Of a DNA stretch of 61,784 bases, positions 14,961 to 61,784 are shown in pieces. The DNA is from a virus. Its lineage: Duplodnaviria; Caudoviricetes. The position numbers were made by a program, and so were the translations under genes. The notes under the pieces were generated by a model that was not told the origin of the DNA, did no database searches, and worked only from the letters and a program-made list of their open reading frames with translations. Within the stretch, counting starts at the first letter, position 1. Each line of letters starts with the position of its first letter. The DNA is taken from positions 1-61,784 of the IMG/VR virus record IMGVR_UViG_3300029448_000029, one strand, 5' to 3'.

Positions 14961-16181
14961 TTATGCTGGTGAAGAACCTAAATCAGCGTCCTGATTCTTG
15001 TTTGTGAATGTAAGTTGGATAAAGTTAATGGACTTGATTGGTTTAACAAATACATCAGCGACAAAGATGTTTGCTTCTGCCTTTTCAGGTGGGTTATTTG
15101 TTTCGTCACAAACAAGTCTAAAGTCAAAGATACCTCTATCCGCTTGAATACCTCTAAGAACTGCACTTGCTCTCGAAACAAAGTTAGTTCTTGTTTCATT
15201 ATCATTTTGTTCAAAGAGAATGGATCTTGCGATTCGCCCAATATCTTTCTTAAGTGTGATAAAGAGTCTGGAAACGTTAATTCTACTTAATGTTGATGTT
15301 GTAGCCTTAAACGTTTTGTCACCAAACAAGAACGTTCCTTCACCGGGGAAAGTAACAATTGGGTTAACACCTGCATCATACAAGGTGTCTTGATTTGCTT
15401 GAGTCAATGTGTGCTTAAGTTTTACAACATCCAAAATTCTACCCCGAGTAAAACCAGCGGGTGAGAAGAAGGGTTGGAATCTAGTATCTGTTCTCGCCAG
15501 ACAACCAGCAACATCAGCGGAGCAGTGTGTTTCAATTAAATCAGAGGAAATATCACTTATGGTAGATTTTCTTTCGAATCCTAAGTGAACTTTTTTACCG
15601 TAAACAGCAATTTTATTTTCCGCAAATTCTGAATCGCCAATCGTGGGAACAAAATCAAAAGCAAACGATGATCCGGTTCCACCTGCGGGGACAATCGCAA
15701 CACAGTCACCACCACGAGACGCTGGAACAGCGAGTGTTGTGTTAACATCAGCAACGGCACTCGATGTGCAGAAAACAGAGTCGATTGATCTTGATTGATA
15801 GTCCGAAGCGGTAAAACCAACGATGGCTGATCCACCATAAAGAAGATAATTTTGAACGGAATACCAGTCATTTTTGATATTAAGTCTACTGTCGCTCGTA
15901 TCCTCTGGGCTAGCATAAGTAATACCCGCTCCAGTTGATTCTTTAATACCAAAAGTATTATCTCTTAGTCGTTTTGTCCAATCGTCAAGGTTAGGAACCT
16001 CCAAGAATCCTTGATCTCTTTCAGCGGTATTCCCTAATGCCGTTACAATACCGTGTTCCTCTGGAATGTAAGCAGCGACGTGTGCTCCATCGGTTTCGGT
16101 AATTAATGTTACAAAACTGTCATCCTCAACGGTAACGATTACTCTCGCTCGTCCGGAATTAATTGTAAGAAAGTCTGCCAT
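14961..16181 (-). CDS. gp18: Contractile tail sheath protein (short form)
   Basis: C-terminal sheath domain: DVAGCLARTD, FFSPAGFTRG, LYDAGVNPIVTFPGEG..LFGDKT, SRINVSRLF, VCDETNN, VKPIKSINFI. Confidence 0.94.
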   Translation of the reverse strand: MADFLTINSGRARVIVTVEDDSFVTLITETDGAHVAAYIPEEHGIVTALGNTAERDQGFLEVPNLDDWTKRLRDNTFGIKESTGAGITYASPEDTSDSRLNIKNDWYSVQNYLLYGGSAIVGFTASDYQSRSIDSVFCTSSAVADVNTTLAVPASRGGDCVAIVPAGGTGSSFAFDFVPTIGDSEFAENKIAVYGKKVHLGFERKSTISDISSDLIETHCSADVAGCLARTDTRFQPFFSPAGFTRGRILDVVKLKHTLTQANQDTLYDAGVNPIVTFPGEGTFLFGDKTFKATTSTLSRINVSRLFITLKKDIGRIARSILFEQNDNETRTNFVSRASAVLRGIQADRGIFDFRLVCDETNNPPEKAEANIFVADVFVKPIKSINFIQLTFTNKNQDADLGSSPA

Positions 16182-16215
16182 GGGTGTCCTCCAGTGATAT
16201 TATGGTGTTCGAGAG

Positions 16216-16223
16216 TATTTATG
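16216..16223 (-). promoter_or_regulatory. Late promoter CATAAATA for gp18
   Basis: One mismatch to consensus, in the gp17-gp18 gap; SD GGAGG downstream. Confidence 0.7.
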
Positions 16224-16241
16224 AATTTTCATATTTGACTG

Positions 16242-17891
16242 TTAATTAAACCATCTGTCCTCTCCGTCCCAAATACTATCGTTTTCACCGTCCATATGCG
16301 GAACAAAGCCAAAAGGCATCACTTCCGATTCCAATCTTTTTATTTCATCATCAAAAATATCAACCCGAACATCTGTATTTGTTAAGTCTTTAAAATAGTC
16401 TTGACGAGTAAGCCAAGCAAAAAGAACAAGCGTCATTACCAAGTCATCGTTGTGTCCTTCATCTGCCTCGTATGACTGTCCTTTTGCGACAAATGTAATA
16501 AGTTCATTCACGATTTCTAAGTCTTCGATGATCATTTTATCTTGCTCAATAAGACTTTTAAGAACAGAACATCCTAATTTTTTAACGGCACTCGTTGTTC
16601 TTACACCCATATGAGATTTTGATCCACCAAAACCACCAGAAATTGTTTGTCCCGCTCTTCCTCTAAAAGCACACATCAAAATATTTTCATACTCCAAGTC
16701 ACGATGAAGGACATCTGCAACCTGTCCACCAATATCGTTGATTTCAATGAGTGTTTGAGCCATATTATATTTTTCAGCGACTGCTTTGATTACGGTTGGA
16801 TAAACCATCGGTGAGATAATATTATTTCGGTATTTTGCAACCACCTTGTATGGAGTCTCGGTAATGTCTGTTATGGTAAACGCACTGTAATCTTTTCCTT
16901 GTCCCCGAGCGGTGTCCACAACACAAACATACTTGTGATTTGCTTTCGGTTCCTCATATAAGTCTAATCCGTCTTTATTTTTCTCAATGGGATTTACCCA
17001 AGACAAAGCGTGAAGTTTAGACGAGGATATCAGGGTGTTTGCAGAACCAACAAAGTCACATTCAAATTCTGTTTGGAATTGAATCTCGCTGGTGTTTGCA
17101 ATCGTTTCCTCTTTCCACTTGTCATTCCGAAGAGGTCCGCCGGGATACATGGGAACTTGCGACCAGTGAACCTCGATGGGAACATATTCGTTCTTTCCGA
17201 TCTCTCCTGCTTTCTTTGTAGCACCCTTCCAGTAGTGGTAGAACATGTTCAAACCGTTCGGAGTGGAAACCATCAGGACTTTCGTGGACTGTCCAGAAGA
17301 GATTGTAGGGTATACAGAACTAAAGAATTCATCAGCAATACCGTGTGGAACGTGAGCAAATTCGTCAAGGAAAATCATGTTGAACGAGCCACCCCGAATC
17401 GCACTCGATGATGTTGACGATGCGATGATCCGAGAGCCGTTCTCTAACTGAATGGAACCTTTGTTCCATTCTACAATACCTTGCTGCAACCAGATCGGAA
17501 GATACTCATATGCCAGTTTGAGTCGGTGCAAAAGTTCTCTCGCTGTGCTTTGTTTGTTAGCGAGAATACCAACCGTCATATCTTGGTTAAAAAGAATGTA
17601 GTGTAGAATGTAAGAAACAACCGTGGTGGACTTACCAGACTGTCGAGGAAGTTTACAAATCACAAAACGATTGCTGTGAATTGTTTCCACAATTTCTTTT
17701 TGATAATCATATAGATCAAAGGGAATCAAACCTTTATCTAGTGAGACAACCTTAACATATTTCTTTGTAAAATAAATCGGATCCCCAGCACATTTCATGT
17801 ATTCTTTAACTTGTGCTTTGGTGAAGGACATCTCCAAACCAGTTTCTTTCAGGTTCGGATTACCAAGATATCCTTTTTGTTTATCACTCAT
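16242..17891 (-). CDS. gp17: Terminase large subunit
   Basis: YLGNPNLK, Walker A PRQSGKST, Walker B IFLDEFAH, STPNG, nuclease VDTARG..DYS, HNDDLVM. Confidence 0.98.
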   Translation of the reverse strand: MSDKQKGYLGNPNLKETGLEMSFTKAQVKEYMKCAGDPIYFTKKYVKVVSLDKGLIPFDLYDYQKEIVETIHSNRFVICKLPRQSGKSTTVVSYILHYILFNQDMTVGILANKQSTARELLHRLKLAYEYLPIWLQQGIVEWNKGSIQLENGSRIIASSTSSSAIRGGSFNMIFLDEFAHVPHGIADEFFSSVYPTISSGQSTKVLMVSTPNGLNMFYHYWKGATKKAGEIGKNEYVPIEVHWSQVPMYPGGPLRNDKWKEETIANTSEIQFQTEFECDFVGSANTLISSSKLHALSWVNPIEKNKDGLDLYEEPKANHKYVCVVDTARGQGKDYSAFTITDITETPYKVVAKYRNNIISPMVYPTVIKAVAEKYNMAQTLIEINDIGGQVADVLHRDLEYENILMCAFRGRAGQTISGGFGGSKSHMGVRTTSAVKKLGCSVLKSLIEQDKMIIEDLEIVNELITFVAKGQSYEADEGHNDDLVMTLVLFAWLTRQDYFKDLTNTDVRVDIFDDEIKRLESEVMPFGFVPHMDGENDSIWDGEDRWFN

Positions 17892-18339
17892 CTAAATCCT
17901 CCGTCACATCCAACATATCTTGTCTGACTTTTGCTCGGGAACTTCGATCATTGTTGATCAAGTCCTGAAGTTCGAGTGTTGAGCCAACATAGATGGCATT
18001 GTTTGTGGTGTTGTTCACGTTCACTTCAGTCTTGTCCATGTCTGCCATCTTCTTATGTAAGTCCATAAGATCAGTGTTCACCTCAGAAACCGTCTTAATA
18101 AGAGTGGCAGCAACTTCGTATGCTCTAGGATGATCTCCCTCGGACGCAATCTTCAGAATACCGTCGATGGCTTCACTGCCACGATCAATGAGTTCCTTTA
18201 GATTTTTTCGAGTGAGGTTAAAATCAACGTCTGCTTTGTCACCAGTGAGTTGAATTTCCTTGACTTCTTTTTTTATATCGTTAACCTCTGCCTTGTAGGT
18301 TGTTTCAAGTGCCTCTGATATTTTATCATTAGAATCCAT
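17884..18339 (-). CDS. gp16: Terminase small subunit
   Basis: DF..TRKNL..LI..G..AIDGIL..A....HPRAYEVAA.LIK, NNAIYVGST.ELQ. Confidence 0.93.
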   Translation of the reverse strand: MDSNDKISEALETTYKAEVNDIKKEVKEIQLTGDKADVDFNLTRKNLKELIDRGSEAIDGILKIASEGDHPRAYEVAATLIKTVSEVNTDLMDLHKKMADMDKTEVNVNNTTNNAIYVGSTLELQDLINNDRSSRAKVRQDMLDVTEDLDE

Positions 18340-18351
18340 GTTTTCTCCATA

Positions 18352-19125
18352 TTAATGAGTTCGTCCCTCTGCGGGATAATACACCGGCCCGGAAAGTCCA
18401 GTAATTGTTGAACCTGTTACACCAAACGAGGAAACAACAGCACTTTCATCACTTGCAGCGTCTGTAAGATTTGCATAGAAGTCTCCGGTGATCGAAAGAA
18501 TAACACCACTTGCTGTAAGTCCTTGAGTTTTGACTGGTCCATACATATACGATTTCGCTAAGAACTCAAACGTTGTTGAGATAAATCTTCTTGTAGCAAA
18601 GTTACCCTCATATTCCTCTTGAATGTTAATGTTTGACAATACAATGGGAACATCGACTTTTTCGTGAGCATCGTTCATGTTTATTGAAACAATAAACTCT
18701 GGGGCAAAAAATGGTGTGATCTGCTCAATAATCTGTAAGTTTTCATCAATACTTGAGGTGAAGGAATATAAACCAAAACTTATATTATAGGGGACTTCAT
18801 TAAAAGCAGATGTTGTAAGAGCACCATCTTGTTTTTTCATTTTCCTTAATTTGTTAATTGTTCTCGTTGGATCATAATTTACTCCGGTAATATCAAAACC
18901 AAGTCTAGGTAAAATCGCTTTTACTTTTGTTTTATCCTCTAAAATTGATCCACCCTCATTCAATCTTGCGATGAATTTTTCTTTCGGTGCGTATGATATC
19001 GGAACTCTAACTTTTTGTGTGGTATTTCCGGCTGAGTCGATATCACGAACAATTATATTGTTGAACAAAGATCCAAAACCTATGACGAGTTTTCTCAATG
19101 ATTCATTGTAGAAAGTTGAAAACAT
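18352..19125 (-). CDS. gp15: Tail sheath stabilizer / tail terminator
   Basis: FYNESLRK.VIGFGSLFNNI, VPISYAPKEKF, LPRLGF, VPYNI.F.L, QIIEQI.PFF.P. Confidence 0.93.
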   Translation of the reverse strand: MFSTFYNESLRKLVIGFGSLFNNIIVRDIDSAGNTTQKVRVPISYAPKEKFIARLNEGGSILEDKTKVKAILPRLGFDITGVNYDPTRTINKLRKMKKQDGALTTSAFNEVPYNISFGLYSFTSSIDENLQIIEQITPFFAPEFIVSINMNDAHEKVDVPIVLSNINIQEEYEGNFATRRFISTTFEFLAKSYMYGPVKTQGLTASGVILSITGDFYANLTDAASDESAVVSSFGVTGSTITGLSGPVYYPAEGRTH

Positions 19126-19787
19126 TAGTAATTACCCTCCGAGAACGGATCGGTATCCGTAAAATCAAATACGTCAAACTCGTCCTCAAGATCCTCAATA
19201 ATTGCATTATCACCAACGGTGACTCCGGTAGAGTTTACCGGAATAAGAATGTCACCTGAAAGACCTCTAGTGTCTGTTTCAAGTGCGTCGATTTGTGAGA
19301 ATCCAGTATCCATATCTTCGTGTGAGTAGGTGAATGTTTCACAAGTTAAATAATATGTGTATAATTTTCCCAGTTGATAAAATGGATTTTCATGCTCCAC
19401 AAAGTTAATTTCAAATAACGTTTTGCTCAATGGAAAAAATATAAGATCACCTTCTCTTGGACGAACTATTTCACTTTGATATGTTGTAACCTCTTGCTCA
19501 AAACGTTTTCTGGCAACAACGAGATCCATTCTGTCGTTTATTTGAATACCAAACTTTGACAATATATCTCCATCACCCTCAAAGCCGTTCACCGACTGAA
19601 TATACATTTCTATTTCATAGCCGTCATCGAACTTTGCCTCGGTGTCCTCTCCGAATAATTTATCTTCATTGATGAGTTTTCTAGGAATATAAACCATCGC
19701 TTTTCCATTGATGCGAATGGATTCAATAGACAAATCTTCAACAAGATTTTGTTCGCTAGAATTCTCTTTGAAATAAGGACTTCTCAT
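19125..19787 (-). CDS. gp14: Neck protein
   Basis: EQNLVEDL.IESI, Y.IEMY, SKFG, RPREGDLIFFPL, FEINFVEHENPFYQLGK. Confidence 0.94.
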   Translation of the reverse strand: MRSPYFKENSSEQNLVEDLSIESIRINGKAMVYIPRKLINEDKLFGEDTEAKFDDGYEIEMYIQSVNGFEGDGDILSKFGIQINDRMDLVVARKRFEQEVTTYQSEIVRPREGDLIFFPLSKTLFEINFVEHENPFYQLGKLYTYYLTCETFTYSHEDMDTGFSQIDALETDTRGLSGDILIPVNSTGVTVGDNAIIEDLEDEFDVFDFTDTDPFSEGNY

Positions 19788-20593
19788 GCAACTATAAAGT
19801 CAATCGGTAATTCATATTGAGAGTAGAACTGTTGTTCGATGATATCAACTTCTTGAACTGCTTCTGCGTATATCTGCGGTCCGTTAAGTTGAACACCACC
19901 AGGCAGTTGAACACCCGCGAATTTAGAAAGATTGCTCCCCCATTGTTTTTTGATCAAAGCCGTGACGTATTTTTTAAACAATCTATCGTTGTAAATTTCC
20001 GTAAAGAAATCTGGATCTAAAGCGGCATAAGCCTCGATGATGATAAAGTCTCCTGCATTGATTTGTTTATCCAGATCAGCATCAATTAAAAGTCTGTTTG
20101 TGACTTTACTAAAACGAATTTCTTTTTCATTTTGGAAAAAATCTTCAATCATGTTGACGTATCTTTTTGCAGAGTCAAAAGAGGTAAGACCTAAAGATGA
20201 GGAGTATCCCAGTCCGGTGTTGATTCCGAAGTAATCAGAAAGAGCCATTTGATAACGAATGTCAAACATGCTCTGAACACCACGAAGGGCACCAAATCTA
20301 AACACTTTTATTATGGAAACAATATCTTGTCCAGTAGGACCACCGTCTGGAAATCCCTTTGGTGTTCCTATTGTATTTGTGTCAATGAAACGATTATTAA
20401 TATCATCCTGTGACAACTCATGTGAGAAAAACACCTTTTCAACTCCGTCGAAATGTCTCTCGGTAAAAAATTGTAGTGCTTCATCAACTCTGTCCTCTGC
20501 TTGCTCTCGATCAACGTTAATTTCAATGACCGGAGCGCCAAGTTTTCTCAGAGCATATTCAATGAGTTCATTCTTAGAGGTTGGCTTTGCCAT
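19784..20593 (-). CDS. gp13: Neck protein
   Basis: Start MAKP at 20593; LIEYALRKLGAPVIEINV, HFDG, YVTALIKKQWG.NLSKF.G.QLPGGV.LNG. Confidence 0.94.
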   Translation of the reverse strand: MAKPTSKNELIEYALRKLGAPVIEINVDREQAEDRVDEALQFFTERHFDGVEKVFFSHELSQDDINNRFIDTNTIGTPKGFPDGGPTGQDIVSIIKVFRFGALRGVQSMFDIRYQMALSDYFGINTGLGYSSSLGLTSFDSAKRYVNMIEDFFQNEKEIRFSKVTNRLLIDADLDKQINAGDFIIIEAYAALDPDFFTEIYNDRLFKKYVTALIKKQWGSNLSKFAGVQLPGGVQLNGPQIYAEAVQEVDIIEQQFYSQYELPIDFIVA

Positions 20594-20613
20594 AGGTATT
20601 CCCCTTTCCAGAA

Positions 20614-20621
20614 TATGTATA
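20614..20621 (-). promoter_or_regulatory. Variant late promoter TATACATA for gp13
   Basis: One mismatch to TATAAATA, between a terminator and the gp13 start. Confidence 0.55.
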
Positions 20622-20625
20622 AGAT

Positions 20626-20655
20626 AAAGCGGGCCCAACCAAGTGGACCCGCTTT
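20626..20655 (-). terminator. Rho-independent terminator ending the baseplate/fibre operon
   Basis: Minus strand AAAGCGGGTCCA-loop-TGGGCCCGCTTT followed by ATCTT; T-rich flank also on the plus strand. Confidence 0.75.
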
Positions 20656-21172: not shown

Positions 21173-22930
21173 TTATATGATATTAATTCTTCTTACCAAT
21201 CTAATTTTAAACTTATTATCTAATCCTGTCAACATTGTAAAACCATCTTTTCTTGATGTTTCTGTATTATCGGGACCAGCAAATGCAGAGTAAACCAGAT
21301 TTGCTGCTGGATAATTTGCAAATTCTCTCACCAAAGTATTGCTTCTAGTTGAAGAAAGATATGGGAAATATAATTCGGGATCAAACGGATTTGAGTATCT
21401 TGTTGGTCTGTATGACAATAACTTTCTTCGATTTTGTGAATAACGAGAAGCATAACCAACCGTAAAATCTAACTCTCTCTGAACATCAATTATGAAACCA
21501 AGTTCTTGAATGCTAGGAACATACCAATCTCGGAAAGAAAATCTATTGTATCCTCTGACTTGTTTAAAGAGATCGCTTTGTGGTGCGGGGTAATTTGATG
21601 CACCGTATGTGTTTAGCAAACCGTCGTAAGTTGATGTCTCCATTCCATCAATTCTTTCTGAGGTTGTTGTGTGTTGATATAAAATGTCGTTCAATCCAAA
21701 CTCATCTCCGAGATCGGACAGACACATAATGAGTGCCCATTTTGAATCGGCACCAATACCACTCTTTTCGGATGCTCTGGGATCAGTTGCCTCTCCAGTT
21801 TCTAAGTTGATTTTTGTTTTACTAATGCCTGGATTGAAAATACCCATGTAAATTCCACCAGCGAATGTATCACCAACATTAGGTAAGTTATCCGCTGAAA
21901 TATTGGGTGGAATCGGGACGTTATTTGAAAAACTTGGCTTTTGTGGACATGTATCTCTATCGCATTCGACGGGACCACTTTCATCTGGATCTATGAAAAA
22001 TCCATTTTGTCTTTCGCACTCTAATCGTGTGGTTCTTATACACCCACCAACGACACAACACGCACTGGTTTCTTCGTTTTGAGTAACCGTTTTTTGTAAA
22101 TTTATGCCAGTAATTTCGTTTTTATTGGAACCTCTGTTTTGATCCTCTTGTGGTATGTCAAAGGGATCTCCCACAACACTTTCCAAATAGGCAGGACCGG
22201 GGGGTGGTGGATCTGGTTCAAACTCACACGATCCATCGTCCACCGTGGCATCTGGATTATAATTTAGAGCATCCGGATCTGTGCAGCCAGCAATTTCAGT
22301 TCCACATTCAAATCCATCTTGACCATTAAGTGTGTCATAGTTGCAAATAGATCCGGTGATAAAAACAGATTGACAATCGGGAATATCTGGTAAATTAAGT
22401 TCCGCACACTCCTGAGCACTGCACACATTTTTACAAACACGAATAAACTCTTCACCAATTTCTTGACAATGACAACAGGCAAATGGGAATCTTACATCAT
22501 TCCTACCTTCAATTCCTTCAGTCGTGCTACAAAGAGTTAATCTACCGAACGCACCATCAGGTTCAACGGGAGACCAGTTTCCCCCATAATACTCACATTC
22601 ACATTTACTGATTCCAGATTGTATGCCGTTTGACGAGCCGAAGATTCCATAGATACCACCATCATTTTCTCCATCACCATCAGCCCAGTCGGTTCCATCT
22701 CCTGTGTTTTTGTTTGCATAATTACAGGAGCAACAAAAACCAGTTTCGTTTGGTTGAGGACATTGATGTGATTCAAAATTAACATTGGGTGTCCAGTAAC
22801 CAAATGAAGATAAACAATCGGAGAATGTTTTTTGTGTTTTCGTTCCGTCTGTTTCACAGCAAACTCCGACTGAGTTAATATACTCTTCGTAATTGATAAC
22901 TGTTTTTATTTTTCCTCGTGTTTGTGCCAT
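21173..22930 (-). CDS. Cys-rich virion protein with C-terminal DUF1566-like (C-type lectin fold) domain; putative adhesin
   Basis: Start likely ATG 22930 (TAATG overlap); GxCC modules, one GCTDPDALNYNPDATVDDGSC repeat, GDTFAGGIYMG ... DWYVPSIQEL ... YLSST ... KIRLVRRI. Confidence 0.7.
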   Translation of the reverse strand: MAQTRGKIKTVINYEEYINSVGVCCETDGTKTQKTFSDCLSSFGYWTPNVNFESHQCPQPNETGFCCSCNYANKNTGDGTDWADGDGENDGGIYGIFGSSNGIQSGISKCECEYYGGNWSPVEPDGAFGRLTLCSTTEGIEGRNDVRFPFACCHCQEIGEEFIRVCKNVCSAQECAELNLPDIPDCQSVFITGSICNYDTLNGQDGFECGTEIAGCTDPDALNYNPDATVDDGSCEFEPDPPPPGPAYLESVVGDPFDIPQEDQNRGSNKNEITGINLQKTVTQNEETSACCVVGGCIRTTRLECERQNGFFIDPDESGPVECDRDTCPQKPSFSNNVPIPPNISADNLPNVGDTFAGGIYMGIFNPGISKTKINLETGEATDPRASEKSGIGADSKWALIMCLSDLGDEFGLNDILYQHTTTSERIDGMETSTYDGLLNTYGASNYPAPQSDLFKQVRGYNRFSFRDWYVPSIQELGFIIDVQRELDFTVGYASRYSQNRRKLLSYRPTRYSNPFDPELYFPYLSSTRSNTLVREFANYPAANLVYSAFAGPDNTETSRKDGFTMLTGLDNKFKIRLVRRINII

Positions 22931-25900
22931 TACTCGCAATCCTCCAAGTATCGACAGTAGTTATCAACGCCAGCAATTTCTGGACAATTCATCGTGACAC
23001 ACTCACCGTTCACAATTTTTCTTGCGATATAGAATGAGTAATTAATTTCAGTAGAATTGAAATTGTCATACGTTGTTTTAAAGAATCCACCGCTTACTCT
23101 TTCTTGTCCTGCATTTCCAGTTGGACGAACTGGATTAAATCCACCAACGTCGTTACCAAAGTTGATTGGTAGATTTTTTCCATAAATGCCATCTTGAACA
23201 CCAGTTGATTGTGTGTTAAACATGGTTCCGCCGGGACCGGGACCAGGTCCTTGACCGCACTGCCCGAAACTGTCTGGATAAAAACAACTACCGTCGTCTA
23301 TATTTGCCTTTGGATCCCAATTACATGCAGTCTCATCTGTGCAGCCATAGATTTCTGGCTCCGGATCAGGTTCAAAAATGCAGCAATTAGAACCACTATT
23401 GGTGCAAGTGCAGGCAAAAGAGGCATCTGGATCATAATTTGTTGCAGATGGCACTAAGCAACCAGCGTATTGACAAGTTCCATTATCTTTAGTTGCACTT
23501 GGATCGTAGTTACACGCTCCCTCATCTGTGCAGCCAGGAACTTCATACTCACATAGCGAGTTGTCACAACAAACTGATATGTCATCACCTGACGAATTGT
23601 AGTTTGTTGCAGCCGGATCACAACAAACTGGTTCACCACAACTGCCTCCATTGGGACAATATTCACACCCCTGATCCACGTTTGCATTTGAATCGTAATT
23701 ACATGCGTTATCATCCATGCAACCAAAGATTGGCTCTGGACAATTAGCACAGGGATTGTCTCTACACTTGCTATTTAATCCTTGAAATTGCCCTCCTAAT
23801 CCTGCACACTGGATAATTAAATTTTGAACACCGGATCCTTGAAGTTCAGAACATATACCGAAAACAGCGTTACCATTTCCATCAGTTTGTTCACATTGTC
23901 CACAACATGCACCACTGTATATGCAGGATCCATCGTCATTAACAGCGTTTTCATTGTAGTTAATTGCATTCGGATCTGTGCAACCATCGACATAGGTGCA
24001 GCACTTGTTCTCTGGGCAAGAAATGACGGTGCCGTTTTGACACTCTGCTTCGTTGTAGTTGCTTGCGGTCGGATCGCAGCAATCTTCGCCGGGAGGTGGT
24101 GGTGGTGGTCCTCCACATGGATTTCCGAGACAACCTTCACCCCGAGTCCAAACAGAGCCTGATGGTGCGAAACAATTACACCATGCTTCCGTTGATTGAC
24201 GGCAAACTCCATTCACACCACAGCAACGTCCAAGATCCTCTGGGAAAGTATTTTTATCTGAGCGAGTAACCCAAACCAAAGATCCCTCATCAAATCCACT
24301 TAACTCATAACCATCAGATCCACGGACAGAGGTGACACCTGTGTGAAGTCCTAAAACGCTTCCCTCTAATAAGTCAGATTCCCCTTGGCTGCCTTGACAT
24401 GCTCCAAACGTTCCGTTGAAGTTAACTCTGCGTGGATCGTGTCGAGGAGAGGCCAAAGCATACAATCCCATATACTCCTCATTGAATGAAAATGACCCTC
24501 CAAGTGGTGTTTCATCTATAAGTGGGAACCCACCAGAATTATAAAATTGATTGTTTTCATCTCTTAACACATATGCAAAACCACGACCATATGCCCAACC
24601 ATTTGGATATATTCCGTTCGGATCTCCTATTGATTCAAAACAACTCGCTCCAATTTCCTCATATCCAAACATCGTGCGGGCTTGACTCTCATAATACTGA
24701 TCAACCGGCCTGTAAACATCATTTGCGTAAATGAAACATAGACCGCTCAGATTGCCGTTCCCACTGGAGCGTTCAACCCATGATCTTACACCAACAAGGG
24801 CACTGGCAGATCCGAGGTTCAATGGAGTTGTCCGAGTCGAAAAGAATCGAAGATAACCATCTACATCTTCATCTGTTGTTGGGGGATAACATGCAGCGAT
24901 GTAATCTGCTGGTTCACGAAACGAGCATGTTGCAGGGGCATTTTCTATAATGCTATTTCTCTCTTCGCAGTTATCTTTGTTATCACCACATGTTTCAGAA
25001 CTAGACCAACAATTACCGCCACCATATTTTACCGCATCAATCCACGGGGCCCAATCAGCCACTTGAGTTTGGAATTTAATCCACTCAGAAACACCTTTAA
25101 TTGTTTTATTGTCCTGAGATCCTTCAAATGCACCAAGCAAAGTTTCATCCACTCCCGCTCCATTTTGTTGATTCCGTCTTGGAGTGGTAGTTACAGGAGC
25201 AGCACAGAAATATCCATAGAAATCGGGATTGTCTGGGATCGGGTTGTCACTTTGGCTTAGTTCAAACCTCATGTAGCCGGGTGCGCCCGCTTCATCTAAG
25301 CAAGGATTGTCCTCGCAAGAAACTCCCTCTTTATATGTTCCGACACACTGAGGACAATCCTCTGGACCTTCTACTTCAACGCACTCATCAATATAAGTGT
25401 AATAGATTGCTCCTTCAGCACCACCACCCGCATTAACAATACCTTGTTTTTTCAAACAACAAACTGCTTTGGCAGCGTTACCGAAACAACAATTTGTCGT
25501 TGCACAATTTGTTCCATCACCTTGGAAAATTCCACCAAATTCTTTACAACGAATGTGACTTAGAGGCTCTCCCGTGTCGGGATCGGCATCAAGACAAATG
25601 CCGGGTTGACCTTCTCCTGTGTCCTCTGGTAATTCAACACTTTCGGGTAAGCCAGGTGGTGGTTCAAACACACCATCTCCATCGGGATCACTAAACGGAA
25701 TACAACATGCACCAAATCTTTCAAACTCTTCACAACAAGTTTTTTCGGGTTGATCAATATCATCCGTTGTGCAAGTATATCCATCTGGATATACATCGTC
25801 GGGTGGTGTGGATATTCCACCATAGACAAATTCACATTGAATTCGAGTTAGGTTGTCACCAATGCAAACACCATTAACACAACAGGGAACTGTTGGTTGA

Positions 25901-27357
25901 CAAAAATCAAAACAGAATCGACCTTCTTCAATTGGCTCTGCGTAGTTAGGTCCCTCGGGATTAAATGGTAACGTAAAAGTTTGCCCTTCAATTTGATATG
26001 AGAAAGTGTTGTTTTCACAAACTGCTGCGGGAAAGAACGTCCCTGCGATTGATTGACATAAAGCCGCACTAATATTAGACTGACATCTACCATCAGAACA
26101 ACAAACCCCACCAAGTTCTCCACATCCATCAGCACAAGATTGCAACGGATTAAAGTTTCCTCCGACAGCATCACATCCTGCTCTGGTTTGATAGTCCGTG
26201 CAAACAAAAATGCCACCAGCGTCAATTAGTGCTTGATCCACAAAGTTTGGATCAATTGTTTGTCCCTCTGCCGTTTGAAAGAAGCAACATGAGCCAGGAA
26301 CATTACCAGTCGTTTCACAACCAGCGGTGTCGTAACCTCTTGCCGTAAAGACGGCATACCAGTTTTCACCACCATCTGTTGTGGTTAGAGAGAGAACATC
26401 CGTTCCGCATGTAAAATAGTTTTCTCCTGTTTCAAAGAAAACATTTGGTGGGAACTGAATGACATTTCCACCGCGAACAAAGAGAGTTTTTGTTATGGAA
26501 TAACCAAGTGGAAAATCACCTGTAAATCCTGCTATGGCAAGAGGGCCTCCACTTGGATCAGCGGAAAGAGTTATAACATCGGACTTGCTTATATCATAGT
26601 GTGTTTCTGCTGTTCCTCCGGGCACTGGAACAGGGCCGGGACCGGGACCAGTCGCTTGCACCACACTGTATCCTCTGAGAACTGAGGTAACGTTCAACGC
26701 AGGTGAAGTAACACCCTCACCAGATTTAAAATCTAGAACATCTCTATTATCACCGCTATCAAAAGTGGAAATACCTGTGCTTGATACAGTATCTTTTTCA
26801 CCCACATAAAGAAGTGTATTGTTTACAATATCAGATGTAACAGATTTGTCGACCGTTGTGGTCGATGAAATAATAATATCATTACCATCAGATGTTGCTT
26901 GCAAACTGCCGCTTGCGGTGATGGATCTAAAATTGTATGTTGTTCCAGATAAACCAAACGCAAAAGTTACTCCGGTTCCCAAGTTAAATAAATCGGCAGC
27001 CGATGAATTAAAACCAGTCGGTCCGGTGATGTAGGGATAGATTCCCGTTGCGTTATCAACATCGGTAAGAAGTTCACTGATTGATATTTCATTTTCTTCG
27101 AGAGTTTCTGGATTTATTCTTTTGGCTCGAACATCAAGGAGAAATTTTGCACCATCGAGTTCTGGATCCCCAAAAGTTCCGCCGGGGAATAGTCTTTCAA
27201 AAGCATAGATGATGTCACCAGTCAATCCACCAGGTCCTGTGGATCCTGTTGGGCCAGTAGGACCGGTCGCTCCTGTTGCACCTCTTGGTCCGGTGGGTCC
27301 AGTCGGTCCTGTAATACCAACTGCCGGGATTGCACTACTACCGTAAATGAAAGCCAT
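22930..27357 (-). CDS. Collagen-like, Cys-rich tail fibre protein
   Basis: N-terminal (Gxx)n GITGPTGPTGPRGATGATGPTGPTGSTG; multiple GxCC modules; about seven GCTD-type repeats near the C-terminus. Confidence 0.75.
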   Translation of the reverse strand: MAFIYGSSAIPAVGITGPTGPTGPRGATGATGPTGPTGSTGPGGLTGDIIYAFERLFPGGTFGDPELDGAKFLLDVRAKRINPETLEENEISISELLTDVDNATGIYPYITGPTGFNSSAADLFNLGTGVTFAFGLSGTTYNFRSITASGSLQATSDGNDIIISSTTTVDKSVTSDIVNNTLLYVGEKDTVSSTGISTFDSGDNRDVLDFKSGEGVTSPALNVTSVLRGYSVVQATGPGPGPVPVPGGTAETHYDISKSDVITLSADPSGGPLAIAGFTGDFPLGYSITKTLFVRGGNVIQFPPNVFFETGENYFTCGTDVLSLTTTDGGENWYAVFTARGYDTAGCETTGNVPGSCCFFQTAEGQTIDPNFVDQALIDAGGIFVCTDYQTRAGCDAVGGNFNPLQSCADGCGELGGVCCSDGRCQSNISAALCQSIAGTFFPAAVCENNTFSYQIEGQTFTLPFNPEGPNYAEPIEEGRFCFDFCQPTVPCCVNGVCIGDNLTRIQCEFVYGGISTPPDDVYPDGYTCTTDDIDQPEKTCCEEFERFGACCIPFSDPDGDGVFEPPPGLPESVELPEDTGEGQPGICLDADPDTGEPLSHIRCKEFGGIFQGDGTNCATTNCCFGNAAKAVCCLKKQGIVNAGGGAEGAIYYTYIDECVEVEGPEDCPQCVGTYKEGVSCEDNPCLDEAGAPGYMRFELSQSDNPIPDNPDFYGYFCAAPVTTTPRRNQQNGAGVDETLLGAFEGSQDNKTIKGVSEWIKFQTQVADWAPWIDAVKYGGGNCWSSSETCGDNKDNCEERNSIIENAPATCSFREPADYIAACYPPTTDEDVDGYLRFFSTRTTPLNLGSASALVGVRSWVERSSGNGNLSGLCFIYANDVYRPVDQYYESQARTMFGYEEIGASCFESIGDPNGIYPNGWAYGRGFAYVLRDENNQFYNSGGFPLIDETPLGGSFSFNEEYMGLYALASPRHDPRRVNFNGTFGACQGSQGESDLLEGSVLGLHTGVTSVRGSDGYELSGFDEGSLVWVTRSDKNTFPEDLGRCCGVNGVCRQSTEAWCNCFAPSGSVWTRGEGCLGNPCGGPPPPPPGEDCCDPTASNYNEAECQNGTVISCPENKCCTYVDGCTDPNAINYNENAVNDDGSCIYSGACCGQCEQTDGNGNAVFGICSELQGSGVQNLIIQCAGLGGQFQGLNSKCRDNPCANCPEPIFGCMDDNACNYDSNANVDQGCEYCPNGGSCGEPVCCDPAATNYNSSGDDISVCCDNSLCEYEVPGCTDEGACNYDPSATKDNGTCQYAGCLVPSATNYDPDASFACTCTNSGSNCCIFEPDPEPEIYGCTDETACNWDPKANIDDGSCFYPDSFGQCGQGPGPGPGGTMFNTQSTGVQDGIYGKNLPINFGNDVGGFNPVRPTGNAGQERVSGGFFKTTYDNFNSTEINYSFYIARKIVNGECVTMNCPEIAGVDNYCRYLEDCE
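23280..24085 (-). repeat. Tandem Cys repeats of consensus GC(T/M)DxxAxNYxxxAxxDDGSC
   Basis: DCCDPTASNY, DGCTDPNAINYNENAVNDDGSC, FGCMDDNACNY, VCCDPAATNY, PGCTDEGACNY, AGCLVPSATNY, YGCTDETACNWDPKANIDDGSC. Confidence 0.85.
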
Positions 27358-27365
27358 TAATTACC

Positions 27366-30300
27366 TCAGTAACCAGAAGATGACGAACCACCCATTGAAG
27401 ATCCACCGCCCATCGGTGATCCACCGCTCATTGGTGATCCGGTTGACGGACGAGCAGTCCCATTATTTATGTTACCTCTTGAAGTATTAATTTGAGTTCC
27501 GTTAAAATAATTATCCCCGCAGTTACATGTTTGACAGTTGTAACAATCTCCATTATTATTTCCAACGTATCGTGCAAGGTGATTATTTAACTGACAATTA
27601 AAATCGGTATCAAAGAGTGGTATTCTTCTGACTGGTCTTGCTGCGGCAATTTTTTCAATTCTAAATTCACTTGACACTAAACCTGATCTAAAGTTTTGTG
27701 TAAACGCTCGGTGTGCATGAGAGGCAACAACAGAGTTTTTAGATTCAAGAATAAACTCTTGTGGATCTTCTGGACGATAATTTGCTCCGATACAACCATT
27801 TGGTGCAACCGCAGTTGTTTTCGCTCCTGTTGTTGACGACCAATAACTTGTCTCGGTGAGTGGTGTCATACCAGATCGAAGAAGAGAACTGTTAATGATA
27901 TTCAAGTTTCCGTAAAGATACATCAACTCAACAATACTTGGAACATACCAATCATTGTAACCAAACTTACCGTCTGTGTTCCAATCAGAAATCAATCGCA
28001 TGATTGCATTTTCTTTATTGTCTTTTTCCCAAAGTTTTTCAAACTCTTGCTTGAAGTATTCTTTGTCTGTTTTTAATTTTTCGATATCAACATCAGGTCC
28101 CCAAACGTCCGTCTTTTCGTGTGACCAACGATCATATGCAGCGTCATCTCTGCCCATCAAATCTTCGATAAACCAAGGCATCCAATCATAACTGCTTCGA
28201 TCAAACATTCTTGTTCCGAGTAAGCCATCGAGGTATGGAGTTCCCATAAACTTACCATCTTCAACAGGATCAGAAGATCCACCATCAAACGCTGCTTGTC
28301 TAAGTCCCCATGACAAAGTTTTTGAATCGTTGTATGACAAATCTTCTGGTGCGATAACAAGCGCCCATTTTCTTGGGGCTCTTCCATCCGAATAATACGA
28401 ACTTGCAATACTATAATATCGTTTAATTTCTTCGTATGAATTTGCAGAAGCGAGTTGTCTCTTGATTGGCAATTCATGAAGGTTTAAATTGTAAGGACTA
28501 TGTGGAACGTCTGGATAACCAGAGGGATCTGAAACAAAGTCTTGTGGGATATACTTGTATGGTGTCACGCTGTCGCAAGAACAAGGCCCATTAATCTCAC
28601 CAAAGTAATTGTTGCCAGCATTCAATACGAAAGTTCTTGCGGTTGATCCAGAACCACTTGGGCAGACAGGACATTGAGATCCATAACCGTGAGTTAAACA
28701 ATATGGTGCTTCACCCTTCGCAATGATAGAGCCATAGTCATTTGGTTCACCAATCACTCCGAGCAAGATACCGCCACCAAATTCATCTCCAGGCTTCAAG
28801 TATGTTGTTGGGTTTACATTCAACGCACACAAAGATCGCTCAGCCTCTGGATTTCGTCTTTCATTTTGTGGGGGTGCAAAAGGTTGTGGTCCCTGATTAT
28901 CTGTGCATGCATCGTTACAGTCCTCACAAATGTCATCACACAATCCGTTACCACCATCACCTCCTACATAGTCCTTACCCCTACCATCAAGTGGTGTATC
29001 TTGTCCTTCCCGACTACCACCGGTGCATCTAAAACCAGTTTGTGAATTTTCGTCTGGAATCGAAGAACTGATGGGAGGGGATGCACATGATCTATTAAGG
29101 ATATACCCCGTCGCAAGACTACCATTAACGATTAATGAATGAAGCCCGGAAAACCCTCCGACCTCGACCAACAAGACCGAATTAGAAGTGGCATTTCCAT
29201 CAAGATCAACAAAAACATGCGGATCTGAGGGGTTGTTTGGATTTGTATAGTAAAACACACCTGAACCATCTGCTGCTGCTATTGGACACACTGTTGCGTA
29301 TTGAATAGGACCAGAGACTGGCACAGAGCAGTCCGTCTGGCAAAGATCACCACAATCTGTAACTGTGCCTTCTCTTTCAAGTGATCTTGCAAAACATGTT
29401 GGCCCAAAAGTTCGTCCTCCGAGTGTAATCTCACAGTCACCGATACCGCAATCCCCTCCACTTTCTGTTGCGATACTACAATAATTTGGAGCGCCCACGG
29501 TGGTGCAACCATAAATCGGACAATCATAGCCAGGGTAGTATGTTTGTAAGAAACCGTCAAAATAAATGCTATATGCGATTCCAGTTGGACATGCTAATTG
29601 ATTTCCATTTGTTCCATTGTATCTGCAAGGCCCTTCAGTTTCACTTACAAAAGTGATAATTGGATCTGGATTTCCTATGCCTCTATTTGTCAATTCGCTT
29701 GCAAGAACTGAACAATCCGCACCGCCGGGAACACTCAATCTAAATGTTTCATTTCCATTGTTAAATTCGCAGCACTTACATGGTGGGACTGATGGTGGTG
29801 GTGCCTCATCTTGTAAACAACAATCTATATTTTCACAAAGAGATCCATTTCCTTGGAAAATACCACCTATTTGATTACATTCAAACGGTGTGATGTCTGG
29901 ATTACAAACTCTTCCAACACAACACGCACCTTTGTAGAAGTCCTGTAAACAACAGTTAAACGTTCGACAATTTTCACCCTCATAAAACGTTCCGCCGGCT
30001 AAATCACACTCATTACGATTGAAGGTGTAACAAACACCATTCACGCAACAGGCACCGACCTCACAACGATCTGGACATTCAACCTCATCTGGAGTCTGGT
30101 TGGGGAAGAAAACACCACGGAATTCATCACAAATTTTGCTGGTAGAATTAACAGAGGTTCCATTAATACAGCAAGTTCCTTGTGCGGCACAGTTTGCGCC
30201 AGTCAAACGATTTAAACAGGTTGTGTCTGCTAAGAAGTTGCCACCAATTTCATCACAATACGCTTTGGTGATGTAATCAGTGCAAGCACCCTCAAAGTTA

Positions 30301-31211: not shown

Positions 31212-31219
31212 ATATTACC

Positions 31220-58712: not shown

Positions 58713-58740
58713 AAAAAGCCCCGCCGAAGCGGGGCTTTTT
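58711..58740. terminator. Bidirectional Rho-independent terminator between convergent gp29-like and gp32 genes
   Basis: AAAAAAAGCCCCGC-CGAA-GCGGGGCTTTTT; C(UUCG)G loop on the minus strand. Confidence 0.93.
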
Positions 58741-58757
58741 ACTAACTAAGTTTTCAC

Positions 58758-59639: not shown

Positions 59640-59652
59640 AAACTTTCCTTCC

Positions 59653-59695
59653 CCGAGGATCTCCCTCGGACTGATACTTTGTGGGAACTCCCCAC
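59653..59695 (-). promoter_or_regulatory. Tandem hairpins with GAGWU pentaloops in the gp32 leader
   Basis: Minus strand GTGGG-GAGTT-CCCAC and CCGAGG-GAGAT-CCTCGG immediately before SD AAGGA. Confidence 0.6.
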
Positions 59696-59696
59696 T

Positions 59697-59930
59697 TCAA
59701 AATAATGACGTTTGTCCTTTTGGGACATTAATATTATAGTTTAGCGTTGCTGCTTCTATTTGCAACTTTTCTTTTATTGGTTTTGAAACTAATTTACCTG
59801 CAACCTCCGGAGACACACTCATTTCTTCGGATATACATATAACAGCGTCTAAGTAAGTCCCTCCATTTTGGAGAACATACTTTTCTACACGTTTTGAGAA
59901 TTTTTCTTGTTCGCTTTCGATAAATATCAT
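59697..59930 (-). CDS. gp33: Late transcription co-activator
   Basis: F...VEK.V.....TYLDAV..I.EE....PE..GKL.SKPIKEKL..EA..LNY; start likely ATG 59930 just after a sigma70 promoter. Confidence 0.88.
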   Translation of the reverse strand: MIFIESEQEKFSKRVEKYVLQNGGTYLDAVICISEEMSVSPEVAGKLVSKPIKEKLQIEAATLNYNINVPKGQTSLF

Positions 59931-59937
59931 TTGAATG

Positions 59938-59966
59938 ATTATAGCCCTTCTTTGAGAAAAAGTCAA
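59938..59966 (-). promoter_or_regulatory. Sigma70-type early promoter TTGACT-N17-TATAAT for gp33-gp32
   Basis: -35 at 59966-59961, 17-nt spacer, perfect -10 at 59943-59938. Confidence 0.85.
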
Positions 59967-59991
59967 TACCTTCTATTTATTGGAGTTTTAA

Positions 59992-61290
59992 ATGCCAGAC
60001 ACCGGATCAAACATAACCATCGACATTAGTGGAAACACCGCTGAGATGGCAACAGATTTTGCCTCTAGTGGTGTAAATGTCACCGGGGCACACGTTCCAA
60101 TCCAAAAACTCGCTTTTGGAGACTCTACTGTATCAAAAAGAGTAAGCAGTAGCAACCCCTTACCCATAACAATTCAAAGTTATCAATCTAACGTTGGTAT
60201 CTCTGGTGATGTTGGTATCTCAGGAAACGCTATAGTATTCAACGCTTTTGAGACAGATCCCACGGGTATCACAAACAACTGGTTGAAAGTTGCTGGATCT
60301 GTTACGGGTGGTGACATTGGAATCACTGGTACAATTCAAGGTATCGCTGGTGGTTATCCAATTGGTGTGACAGGGACCGTCGCTATCGACGAACAAACAG
60401 GTATTCCTGTCCACGGTATCAGCGGTCAGGACGGCTTCACAGGAACCGCTGCTCCGCTCCTCGCAACAGGTGGCAGACGGCTCACATCCGCAACAGACAC
60501 CGTTACCGTGACTGGTACGGTTAATGCAACGGGTGGTAGAAATATCCTCGCTGCGACTGACAGTATCAAAGTCTTTGGTTCTGACGCTTCTCAATATATT
60601 CCTGCCATTTTATATCGAAGTTCATCCGGAGCAACCGCTGGATTCTCTGGTGACGCTCTGAAAGTTTCTATTGTTGACGCAAGCATCGCAATCACAGCAA
60701 ACGTTCAAACAACTCATGGTGTCACAAATGACAGTGTGGATAATGCTCTGAGAATTCAGGGACTCACTGGTGCAGAACCCGTCTTGATTAAGGGTGAAAA
60801 CGGTGGTGCCGTTCCGATTACGACATCTAGTGCCATTACCGTAACGCAAAGTGGAACCGTAACAATTGACGATACAAACATCACGACATCATTGGAATCA
60901 TCGTCTAAACCAATCGTTTCCAATCTTACCTCGATCAAGAGTAACACCAATTCCATTCCGGGGATTAGAACTGATCTTGCCTCTGGCAACGTTCAAGTTA
61001 AAGTTCTCGAATCAGTGCAACCATCCTCCTTGTCAGCAGGAAGTAGATCGGTAAACACAACAGCATCTCAACTTGTCACGAATGTTGAAGTGAAGAGTGG
61101 AGTTTCGATTAAATCTAGTGTTGATAACACAGACACGATCTTAGTCGGAAGTTACACGTTAACACAAGGTGATAGAAACGGATATCCGTTAGAGCCGGGT
61201 GAGTCGTGTTTCTTAAACGTCAACAACGTTGGATTGGTTTATTGTAAGTCGGTTCGGGGATCACAAACGGTTCACTACTTAGGATCGTAA
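59992..61290 (+). CDS. Hypothetical virion protein, Gly/Thr/Val-rich beta-repeat
   Basis: Repeated V.G.V.I / GITG / GVTG segments, C-terminal GYPLEPGES beta-domain; SD GGAG. Confidence 0.6.
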   Translation: MPDTGSNITIDISGNTAEMATDFASSGVNVTGAHVPIQKLAFGDSTVSKRVSSSNPLPITIQSYQSNVGISGDVGISGNAIVFNAFETDPTGITNNWLKVAGSVTGGDIGITGTIQGIAGGYPIGVTGTVAIDEQTGIPVHGISGQDGFTGTAAPLLATGGRRLTSATDTVTVTGTVNATGGRNILAATDSIKVFGSDASQYIPAILYRSSSGATAGFSGDALKVSIVDASIAITANVQTTHGVTNDSVDNALRIQGLTGAEPVLIKGENGGAVPITTSSAITVTQSGTVTIDDTNITTSLESSSKPIVSNLTSIKSNTNSIPGIRTDLASGNVQVKVLESVQPSSLSAGSRSVNTTASQLVTNVEVKSGVSIKSSVDNTDTILVGSYTLTQGDRNGYPLEPGESCFLNVNNVGLVYCKSVRGSQTVHYLGS

Positions 61291-61291
61291 C

Positions 61292-61784
61292 ATGAATAAT
61301 AATCGACGTTACAATCGAAAGAGGATGGGCCAAAAACTGGACCATCAATCAACTCAGTCCTTTTTAGCGTTACAATTCACTGACAGTTTAGATGACTTAT
61401 ACACCAGTGAATATGTGGAATCAAATCCATCGGTTATTATTTCTGGAACGGATTTTATTTTTGATTACTCGTCAAAAACAAACAAAGACAAGTATCAAGA
61501 TGTTGTAACTCTACTTAAATTAAAAAAATCTGGTATAACGTTTGATATATCAAATGCAGAGTATTATAATCCAGAGAATAATATCTCTGCTGATTTTTCT
61601 GGAACTTACACACTGTCAAGATTTCTCGGTGACGACAAAATTATTTTGTCAAATGTAAGTGGTGCAACGTGGGACTCTAAGCAAAAACTATACAAAGATA
61701 ATTATTTTAAAAGCAATGTCTTAATGGGATTAACTCTCCCCACTGGAGCAACAGGACATTATAGAGTAACGAATCAGTTGGGTT
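61292..61784 (+). CDS. Partial hypothetical protein running off the window edge
   Basis: ATG at 61292 right after the upstream stop; hand translation open to the end (MNNNRRYNRKRMGQ...GLTLPTGATGHYRVTNQLG). Confidence 0.65.
   Translation, partial: MNNNRRYNRKRMGQKLDHQSTQSFLALQFTDSLDDLYTSEYVESNPSVIISGTDFIFDYSSKTNKDKYQDVVTLLKLKKSGITFDISNAEYYNPENNISADFSGTYTLSRFLGDDKIILSNVSGATWDSKQKLYKDNYFKSNVLMGLTLPTGATGHYRVTNQLG

Follow-up and report, generated by a model that had tools for sequence, protein, structure and literature searches.

In C. difficile, the glycosyltransferase (GT) SgtA, described as a GT-A domain (aa 1-260) with four tetratricopeptide repeats (TPRs), is encoded immediately upstream of bclA3 and is reported to add beta-O-linked N-acetylglucosamine (GlcNAc) to Thr in G-P-T and G-A-T repeats, to accept Ser, and to modify peptides that hold a single GPTG, GATG or GASG site (PMC7157674). 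GmaR, the flagellin O-GlcNAc transferase of Listeria, is described as having an N-terminal domain that transfers GlcNAc to flagellin, followed by a TPR domain (PMC9638930). In viral collagen-like proteins, TGP and TGA triplets are reported to be unusually frequent, and (Gly-Pro-Thr)10 is said to be triple-helical only when its Thr is glycosylated (PMC11923368). In pelagimyophages and cyanomyophages, runs of GT genes have been described beside tail-fibre genes, in a hypervariable part of the genome, along with structural proteins that carry collagen triple-helix repeats (PMC7029224). Such clusters are usually read as modifying the lipopolysaccharide (LPS) or O-chain of the host (PMC7029224) or, in broader terms, as serving host-surface or DNA modification (PMC7029224, PMC12801897), and the parts of PMC7029224 available to us draw no link to G-x-T fibres or to a protein glycosyltransferase of the GT2+TPR type. 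Our searches of one open-access library turned up no report of glycosylated fibres in marine myoviruses. Here, the short motif G-x-T-G is analyzed in the tail proteins encoded by IMG/VR record IMGVR_UViG_3300029448_000029 (61,784 bases, called the window), which is a fragment of a T4-like marine myovirus. A sequence-only reading of positions 14961-61784 had proposed that the motif is an O-glycosylation sequon scattered through nearly all tail and neck proteins and modified by a phage GT, giving a glycan-coated virion.

The excess of G-x-T-G in this phage is real; it is a Thr-specific and lineage-wide property of a fibre module, and not of T4-like tails generally. The open reading frames (ORFs) of the window were classed as 16 non-virion, 2 head (capsid and portal) and 28 tail-class proteins (14,699 aa), and expected counts were obtained by shuffling residues within each protein (500 shuffles per protein for full sequences). 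Over full sequences, the tail-class proteins hold 54 G-x-T-G against 10.3 expected. When runs of at least four G-X-Y triplets are masked, 31 sites are left against 9.7; with runs of at least three triplets masked, 27 are left against 9.3 in a global shuffle and against 10.5 or 10.3 when local composition is preserved in blocks of 40 or 20 aa, with z of 5.2-5.7 across the three shuffles. The enrichment that the sequence-only reading expected in virion proteins after composition control is therefore present for Thr, and is weak for Ser: G-x-S-G occurs 17 times against 10.6-11.5 (z 1.7-2.0) in the masked tail-class set. In that same set no other residue is enriched at position 3 (|z| at most 2), and neither is the G..G frame as a whole (126 vs 123-131); the excess belongs to Thr at position 3 alone. 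When two- and three-residue patterns with 8 or more occurrences are scanned without bias, G.TG comes eighth, and the patterns ahead of it stem from Cys-rich repeat modules of three giant ORFs (e.g. G.CC, 15 vs 1.3).

Because the non-virion contrast has no power in the window, where the 16 non-virion proteins hold one G-x-T-G against 0.7 expected, relatives were used as a control. These were reached through the family of a 432-aa protein encoded near the right end of the window, which led to 79 IMG/VR loci. Two of the relatives, G001 (87% complete) and G002 (70%), both 157 kb long, share synteny with the window across the whole module, at ~25-73% protein identity. The tail module of G001 (26 ORFs) holds 27 G-x-T-G against 8.6 (z 6.4) and that of G002 (25 ORFs) 27 against 8.1 (z 6.9), and both excesses are Thr-specific too (Ser z 0.2 in G001 and 1.7 in G002). 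Outside the tail and head modules, the 125 ORFs of G001 (32,156 aa) show no excess (8 vs 8.3), which agrees with the earlier proposal that non-virion proteins would not be enriched. The 119 corresponding ORFs of G002 hold 18 against 8.6, because four further fibre/collagen ORFs lie at 81.6-90.9 kb. An excess in both tail modules and none in the non-tail ORFs of G001 supports tail specificity. The more particular remark that the motif is essentially absent from gp46, gp47, gp55 and gp32 is true, and within the window it has no statistical weight. Among control phages, namely T4 and three cultured cyanomyoviruses, no significant excess was found in T4 (27 tail proteins, 8 vs 6.6), P-RSM6 (12 proteins, 16 vs 11.5, with G-x-S-G 14 vs 7.8), P-TIM68 (11 proteins, 15 vs 10.5) or S-SKS1 (11 ORFs, 3 vs 4.8). 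The analyzed regions of P-TIM68 and S-SKS1 contain no tract of at least four G-X-Y triplets, and P-RSM6 has one short G-X-Y run only, in its sheath protein.

Within the window, five or six proteins of the fibres or the baseplate edge carry the signal. Of the 28 tail-class proteins, 11 hold G-x-T-G (11 of the 26 that lie inside 14961-61784) and 14 hold G-x-[TS]-G, while 17 have no G-x-T-G at all, so the picture of a motif in nearly all tail and neck proteins does not hold, nor does that of a phage-wide virion sequon, the excess being confined to a few fibre-like proteins. All nine motif strings quoted in support of that picture do exist in the proteins named: AGGTG and AGIT in the sheath ORF 14961-16181, FGVTGSTITG in gp15, STGVT in gp14, GGPTG in gp13, GRTGATGSTG and three GETG in a gp8-like baseplate protein, DGITGG in the hub ORF and GLTLPTGATG in the last ORF. 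Taken protein by protein, p falls below 0.05 for the 1610-aa giant ORF (7 isolated sites vs 1.45 expected, a count reached in none of 2000 shuffles), the 1281-aa giant ORF (4 isolated vs 1.05, p 0.0185), the 756-aa ORF (4 vs 0.97, p 0.0135, plus 2 G-x-S-G), the gp8-like ORF (3 isolated vs 0.32, p 0.0015) and the partial last ORF (1 vs 0.05, p 0.0485, resting on a single site). The gp8-like protein has its GETG at aa 33, 91 and 197 and its mini-tract GRTGATGSTG at aa 256-265. The 432-aa ORF is borderline (2 vs 0.48 after masking, p 0.077), and in the third giant ORF, of 1475 aa, isolated sites are at chance (2 vs 1.57, p 0.46). Singletons in the neck, sheath and hub are also at chance: one site each in gp18 (p 0.19), gp15 (p 0.11) and gp13 (p 0.06), and one in the hub-like ORF against 0.52 expected. 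No G-x-T-G is found in gp14, the 392-aa ORF, the portal, the tube or ORF 8155-8721 (a match to tail-tube family phrog_45), and the capsid has one against 0.32. Altogether, capsid, portal, tube, sheath, neck and most baseplate proteins hold 0-1 sites each, at chance level.

The three giant ORFs each hold an uninterrupted G-X-Y tract rich in G-P-T or G-A-T, as in proteins of the BclA type. The phage tracts resemble those of C. difficile BclA3, the partner of SgtA, and of B. anthracis BclA in being dominated by these triplets, and differ in belonging to tail fibres and not to a spore nap. Other Thr-rich collagen-like proteins, including Riftia cuticle collagen with its galactosylated Thr, have continuous G-X-Y tracts, whereas here isolated G-x-T-G also stand in non-collagen domains. 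The 1475-aa ORF has a phrog tail fiber match at aa 14-47 and a Pfam Collagen score of 20.1 bits, below the cut-off of 27.2; the 1281-aa and 1610-aa ORFs have no Pfam Collagen match. The N-terminal 300 aa of the three can be aligned at the collagen tract only, and BLASTP between the 1475-aa and 1610-aa ORFs gives weak matches confined to the Cys-rich modules. Since the giant ORFs align at the tract only, their isolated sites are not obviously paralogous copies. At aa 1068-1136, the 1281-aa ORF shows a sub-threshold match (27 bits vs 34.9) to Lcl_C (PF07603), the Legionella collagen-like C-terminal domain.

The isolated sites recur in a small set of contexts. A hydrophobic residue often precedes the first Gly (VIGSTG, FIGATG, NIGLTG, PIGVTG), and G-phi-[ST]-G-D-phi is found at the ends of collagen tracts and elsewhere (GLTGDIIY, GISGDLIV, GISGDGIN). 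G-x-T-G-x-C-C opens Cys-rich modules at aa 197 of the gp8-like protein and aa 541 of the 1610-aa ORF, and also occurs in G001 (aa 398 and 545) and G002 (aa 519). In fibre proteins of the relatives, the motif is part of a regular repeat, [ST]-F-N-G-x-T-G-x-[IV], for example TFNGVTGAIV and SFNGITGSVD, and such repeat-bearing proteins include one of 737 aa in the contig G016 (4 vs 0.96) and one of 927 aa in G002 (6 vs 1.25).

The sites are also conserved in position. The family of the 432-aa protein comprises 179 database clusters at E at most 1e-5, some on contigs longer than 150 kb, and 30 members with 38-69% identity were aligned. Of these, all 30 retain GFSG at aa 217 and the Asp that follows it; at site 110, Gly holds position 1 in 26 of 30, x is V or I in 28 of 30, position 3 is Thr in 24 and Ser in 6, and position 4 is Gly in all 30; at site 125, x is V or I, position 3 Thr or Ser and position 4 Gly in every sequence. 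This protein adjoins gp32 in every record examined, and its N-terminal two-thirds are Gly-rich. Its C-terminus is predicted with confidence as a jelly-roll, with weak structural matches of Ena/cupin-like type. For the 756-aa protein, 49 family members were found and 32 aligned. The homologues have 1-8 G-x-T-G each, 130 in sum against 36 expected, and the surplus lies in ~12 semi-conserved alignment columns, whereas the 20 singleton columns match chance. In the AlphaFold2 (AF2) model of this protein, whose mean predicted local distance difference test (pLDDT) score is 71.3, sites 118 and 675 are placed between strands and site 111 where strand 108-113 ends. The only sites modelled with confidence, two of the six, are predicted to lie in turns or loops. 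The C-terminal half of the model resembles CBM4/CBM22 modules, which would fit a receptor-binding protein.

A candidate enzyme is encoded beyond the left end of the window. Contigs G016 and G017 overlap this end at 94-95% nucleotide identity and extend ~20 kb further, and in each, after a run of GT-like ORFs, an ORF (423 aa in G016, 425 aa in G017) matches PF00535 (GT2). In the G016 protein, the N-terminal GT2 match scores 32.1 bits, above the cut-off, and sub-threshold TPR matches follow at aa 201-236; TPR matches fall at the same place in all four proteins scanned, all below Pfam cut-offs. Directly after the G016 gene lies one for a collagen-like protein of 331 aa (Pfam Collagen 90.9 bits), followed by that of the 737-aa fibre protein with FNGxTG repeats. 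The same protein, at 50-70% identity and with IDADDY invariant, is encoded in G001 (449 aa), G002 (397 aa) and the further relative G003 (401 aa), where its gene is the last in a long co-directional run of 200-300-aa ORFs, GT2 and GT10 families among them, and is followed by an ORF of ~145 aa and then by a collagen-like ORF. When 18 records are searched with a profile built from the five proteins, the gene turns up in 5, namely all three relatives that are at least 54% complete together with G016 and G017, and the window itself gives no match. The best solved matches of this profile are GmaR (E 3.3e-13) and SunS of SPbeta (E 1.6e-7), a peptide S-glycosyltransferase, and the match is limited to the N-terminal ~100-115 residues of the catalytic domain.

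The phage proteins share with GmaR a GT domain followed by TPRs, and differ from it in their length of 397-449 aa and the absence of an antirepressor domain. The gene can likewise be compared with SgtA, by the described architecture of that enzyme and because in the relatives it lies beside collagen-like genes. Unlike the BclA and BclA3 systems, however, the enzyme gene is outside the window and a glycan is hypothetical here; moreover, in two of the four phage records (G016 and G001) the adjoining collagen-like protein has no G-x-T triplets. The gene order shared by four related records also counts as one evolutionary observation and not as four. Beyond this lineage the enzyme is rare, with tblastn matches in only 8 of 50,697 GenBank phage records. 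The best is gp35 of Tunturi_5; 3.7 kb away is a gene annotated as tail fibre, whose product has five (GPT/GAT)n tracts and 66 G-x-T-G. Outside its tracts, this fibre has no isolated G-x-T-G (1.12 expected), and thus the enzyme and the tracts alone do not bring the isolated motif with them. In one of three huge uncultured phages with a copy, a 1937-aa ORF bearing G-x-T tracts lies within 6 kb of it; in the other two, nothing similar lies within 15 kb. As in the regions described for pelagimyophages and cyanomyophages, GT runs stand next to fibre genes in G001, G002, G003 and G016. Beyond the position of the window's left end, the loci L126 (G016 1-11900), L107, L093-L096 and L100 hold runs of ~10 to ~30 co-directional ORFs of 200-500 aa, which include GT2 and GT10 (fucosyltransferase-like) genes and each end in the GT2+TPR gene, next to collagen-like and fibre genes.

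The window itself contains a GT-like ORF, 4252-4989, of which the sequence-only reading made no mention. It matches PF04488 (the GT32 DXD region) with 50.5 bits against a cut-off of 23 (52.8 bits in a repeat scan) and PF05704 with 26.6 bits against 24.5, and weakly resembles Och1 (E 0.011) and SetA, a protein glucosyltransferase (E 0.09). The Och1 alignment spans the conserved ...GGlYfDlD... stretch, and the family match is above the curated cut-off with the D-x-D region included. One IMG/VR relative is 96% identical (L001), and no tblastn match was obtained in the 50,697 GenBank phage records; the ORF and its unannotated neighbours received no NCBIfam name. The family was found in 0 of 15 relatives' records, 12 of which are only 18-30% complete and uninformative as to absence, by a search that recovers the window copy, and in G001 gp55 follows gp47 directly with no GT32 gene between them. 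G001 and G002, the two relatives in which the motif was counted, show the excess without GT32; the gene is not linked to the motif and does not co-occur with the G-x-T-G excess there. GTs in general are uninformative for co-occurrence, as the more complete relatives all carry several GT2 genes.

We give about an even chance to the reading that the G-x-T-G excess is mainly a structural signature of fibres, kept by descent. The motif would supply short turns, caps and repeats of the shaft in fibre domains that are rich in beta structure and probably trimeric, in a lineage that also builds fibres with G-x-T collagen-like tracts. The Gly on either side would make a tight turn possible; Thr, being beta-branched, and x, which is often hydrophobic, would suit strand ends; and the motif would be retained by descent at particular positions, any glycosylation being secondary. 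Sites that keep their position and an invariant Gly suit a structural role no less than glycosylation, and the fact that Ser is barely enriched, although SgtA-type enzymes accept it, favours the structural reading. Several points weigh against it. Residue x is heterogeneous (V, I, L, F and A, but also E, G, P, N, K and S), so that no one structural template would serve all sites. In the AF2 monomer of the 432-aa protein, the motif-rich residues 1-290 mostly have pLDDT below 50, and sites 42, 234 and 443 of the 756-aa model lie in segments below 50 that might just as well be acceptor loops on the surface. No solved homologue was found when the PDB was searched by sequence with the gp8-like protein, the 756-aa protein and the profile of the 432-aa family. 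Positional conservation is compatible with glycosylation too, and in this lineage the excess is found together with G-x-T tracts and an enzyme of GmaR/SgtA type, just as O-glycosylation of the fibres would predict. According to that alternative, which we regard as tentative and the less probable of the two, Thr of G-x-T-G, in the tracts in the first place and at isolated sites too, would receive a sugar from a phage GT2+TPR enzyme of the GmaR/SgtA type, and the neighbouring GT array might extend the sugar, giving glycan-coated fibres and not a glycan-coated virion. It can draw on the modification of single G-x-[TS]-G sites by SgtA, as reported, and the place of its gene beside bclA3 (PMC7157674), on the Thr glycosylation that a (GPT)10 triple helix is said to require (PMC11923368), on the GT2+TPR gene beside collagen-like genes in five records (G016, G017, G001-G003) with GmaR and SunS as its best solved matches, on the neighbourhoods in Tunturi_5 and in one of the three huge phages, and on the tail and Thr specificity of the excess. 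The BclA-type precedent invoked by the sequence-only reading is thus genuine and extends to single sites; for this phage it raises, by analogy, a possibility. Against the alternative stand a glycan that would be assigned by analogy, an enzyme encoded outside the window, adjoining collagens without G-x-T in G016 and G001, sub-threshold TPR matches, the absence of an isolated-site excess in Tunturi_5, the weak response of Ser, a gene order that is a single evolutionary observation, and the usual reading of marine GT clusters as LPS modifiers. In its fuller form, which we consider equally tentative, a marine T4-like lineage would O-glycosylate its own fibres: the GT2+TPR protein would add the first sugar to Thr both in the collagen-like tracts, whose triple helix may depend on it, and at isolated sites in the fibre domains, and the adjacent 20-30 GT-like genes would build the glycan. 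If the Thr do carry sugars, virion glycosylation by phage enzymes would extend from mycobacteriophages, where it is reported, to abundant marine myoviruses and to receptor-binding fibres, with bearing on host recognition, particle stability, grazing and stickiness in seawater, and the GT clusters in the hypervariable fibre region of marine myophages, so far taken as LPS modifiers, would serve in part at least to glycosylate fibres. Should the motif be structural only, it would provide a replicable signature by which to recognize the fibre proteins of this lineage, the genes of which have no Pfam match, and a caution against taking short Gly/Thr motifs as sequons.

The other explanations are much less probable than either of these. 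That nearly all tail and neck proteins carry a virion-wide sequon for a phage GT such as the GT32-like ORF is very unlikely and is largely refuted by the distribution of the motif: although a GT32-like gene with weak Och1/SetA similarity is present, it is missing from the relatives that keep the excess, 17 of the 28 tail-class proteins lack the motif, and capsid, portal, tube and sheath are at chance. Certain mycobacteriophages reportedly glycosylate their virions, with phage enzymes acting on capsid and tail-tube subunits, and unlike in that type capsid and tube carry no excess here. It is also highly improbable that the isolated units are a by-product at the DNA level, as decayed or recombined pieces of collagen-tract DNA. 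Isolated sites are commonest in tract-bearing proteins, and the Thr codon ACT makes up 50% both in tracts and at isolated sites against a background of 27%; however, ACT is also used for 40% of the Thr in the 98 remaining TG pairs (p 0.39 for isolated sites against these), just 3 of the 28 isolated sites have a tract within 20 aa, and sites are conserved at 40% protein identity. No nucleotide-level resemblance of isolated sites to tracts was seen beyond codon-pair bias. The 756-aa protein, moreover, has no run of at least three triplets, and the gp8-like and 432-aa proteins have runs of 3-4 triplets only, yet all three have an excess. In all tail-class ORFs, Thr before Gly prefers ACT (40-50% vs 26% for other Thr), a codon-pair bias unrelated to the motif. 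An artefact of chance or composition, picked out by eye after the collagen tracts had been seen, is extremely unlikely. The motif was indeed chosen post hoc, tail proteins are richer in Gly and Thr, and TG (123 vs 98.4) and G.T (122 vs 98.2) are each raised ~1.25-fold; these two biases, however, multiply to ~1.55-fold, or ~14 expected against the 27 seen, and the excess survives masking and block shuffles while none of the four control phages shows a significant one. Chance can be dismissed because the excess replicates in G001 and G002.

Features of the window are collected in the table below, in which the T4-like layout was assigned from PHROGs and Pfam. The window is the entire record of this genome, with a CheckV completeness of 34%. 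By megablast, cyanophage matches are short only (10 records), the best being to the major head gene of P-RSM6 (85.4% identity over 1% of the query), and the gp8-like protein is only 24-32% identical to its counterparts in cultured cyanophages; the phage belongs to a divergent marine myovirus lineage.

Features of the 61,784-base window (positions on the window; ORF lengths in aa)
Feature	Position	Strand	Remarks
gp46, gp47, gp55, UvsW, UvsY, capsid, scaffold, protease, portal	1505-14351		
GT32-like glycosyltransferase, 245 aa	4252-4989	-	between gp47 and gp55; outside 14961-61784
Tube, short 406-aa sheath, gp17, gp16, gp15, gp14, gp13	14406-20638		
Sheath gp18 (406 aa), gp15, gp14, gp13	14961-20638	-	gp17 and gp16 lie between
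Three giant ORFs (1475, 1281, 1610 aa)	22930-36052	-	N-terminal collagen-like tract in each
Giant fibre-like protein, 1475 aa	22930-27357	-	(GPT/GAT)n tract aa 14-49
Giant fibre-like protein, 1281 aa	27366-31211	-	collagen-like G-x-T tract aa 18-49
Giant fibre-like protein, 1610 aa	31220-36052	-	(G-P/I-T)n N-terminal collagen-like tract aa 16-47; Cys-rich modules
Fibre-like ORFs, 392, 756, 741, 315 aa	after the giant ORFs		
Putative tail-fibre/receptor-binding protein, 756 aa	37239-39509	-	phrog_4492; predicted C-terminal CBM4/22-like beta-sandwich
gp8-like, gp7-like, gp6, gp25, 1848-aa hub-like, gp53, gp48, gp4, gp54-like, gp26, gp5-like lysin	after the fibre-like ORFs		
gp8-like baseplate wedge protein, 618 aa	42698-44554	-	phrog_438
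Hub-like protein, 1848 aa	48097-53643	-	one GITG site
gp32, then 432-aa ORF, then partial ORF	right end of window		
Protein of large unannotated marine family, 432 aa	59992-61290	+	8 G-x-[TS]-G sites
Partial last ORF, 164 aa	61292-61783	+	one GATG site; runs past window end

Some further observations concern the genes around the fibre module and the relatives. The Cys-rich modules are repeated in the three giant ORFs and in the gp8-like protein (aa ~197-235), where CC reaches 30 against 12 expected, and match no Pfam family. The sheath ORF 14961-16181 (minus strand) is only 406 aa long, against 659 in T4 and 932 in P-RSM6. G001 has tandem sheath-like ORFs of 441 and 446 aa at 89979-92669 (13979-16669 within the stretch 76001-156000), one of which holds 4 G-x-T-G against 0.70 expected, and also two tube-like ORFs. 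In G002, a 570-aa ORF after the extra fibre genes (L096:9182-10894) carries DUF285 repeats (PF03382, 87.4 bits), which form a family whose name derives from surface proteins of Mycoplasma. At the left end of the window, ORF 2-820 (minus strand), cut by the end, is the N-terminal part of a 533-aa ORF of G016 that has a weak C-terminal DNA-methylase match (21.6 bits, below the cut-off). The neighbouring ORF 760-1512 (minus strand) would encode a 250-aa pyridoxal phosphate (PLP)-dependent, PALP-like enzyme, with a match below the Pfam cut-off, and has relatives in 25 IMG/VR contigs.

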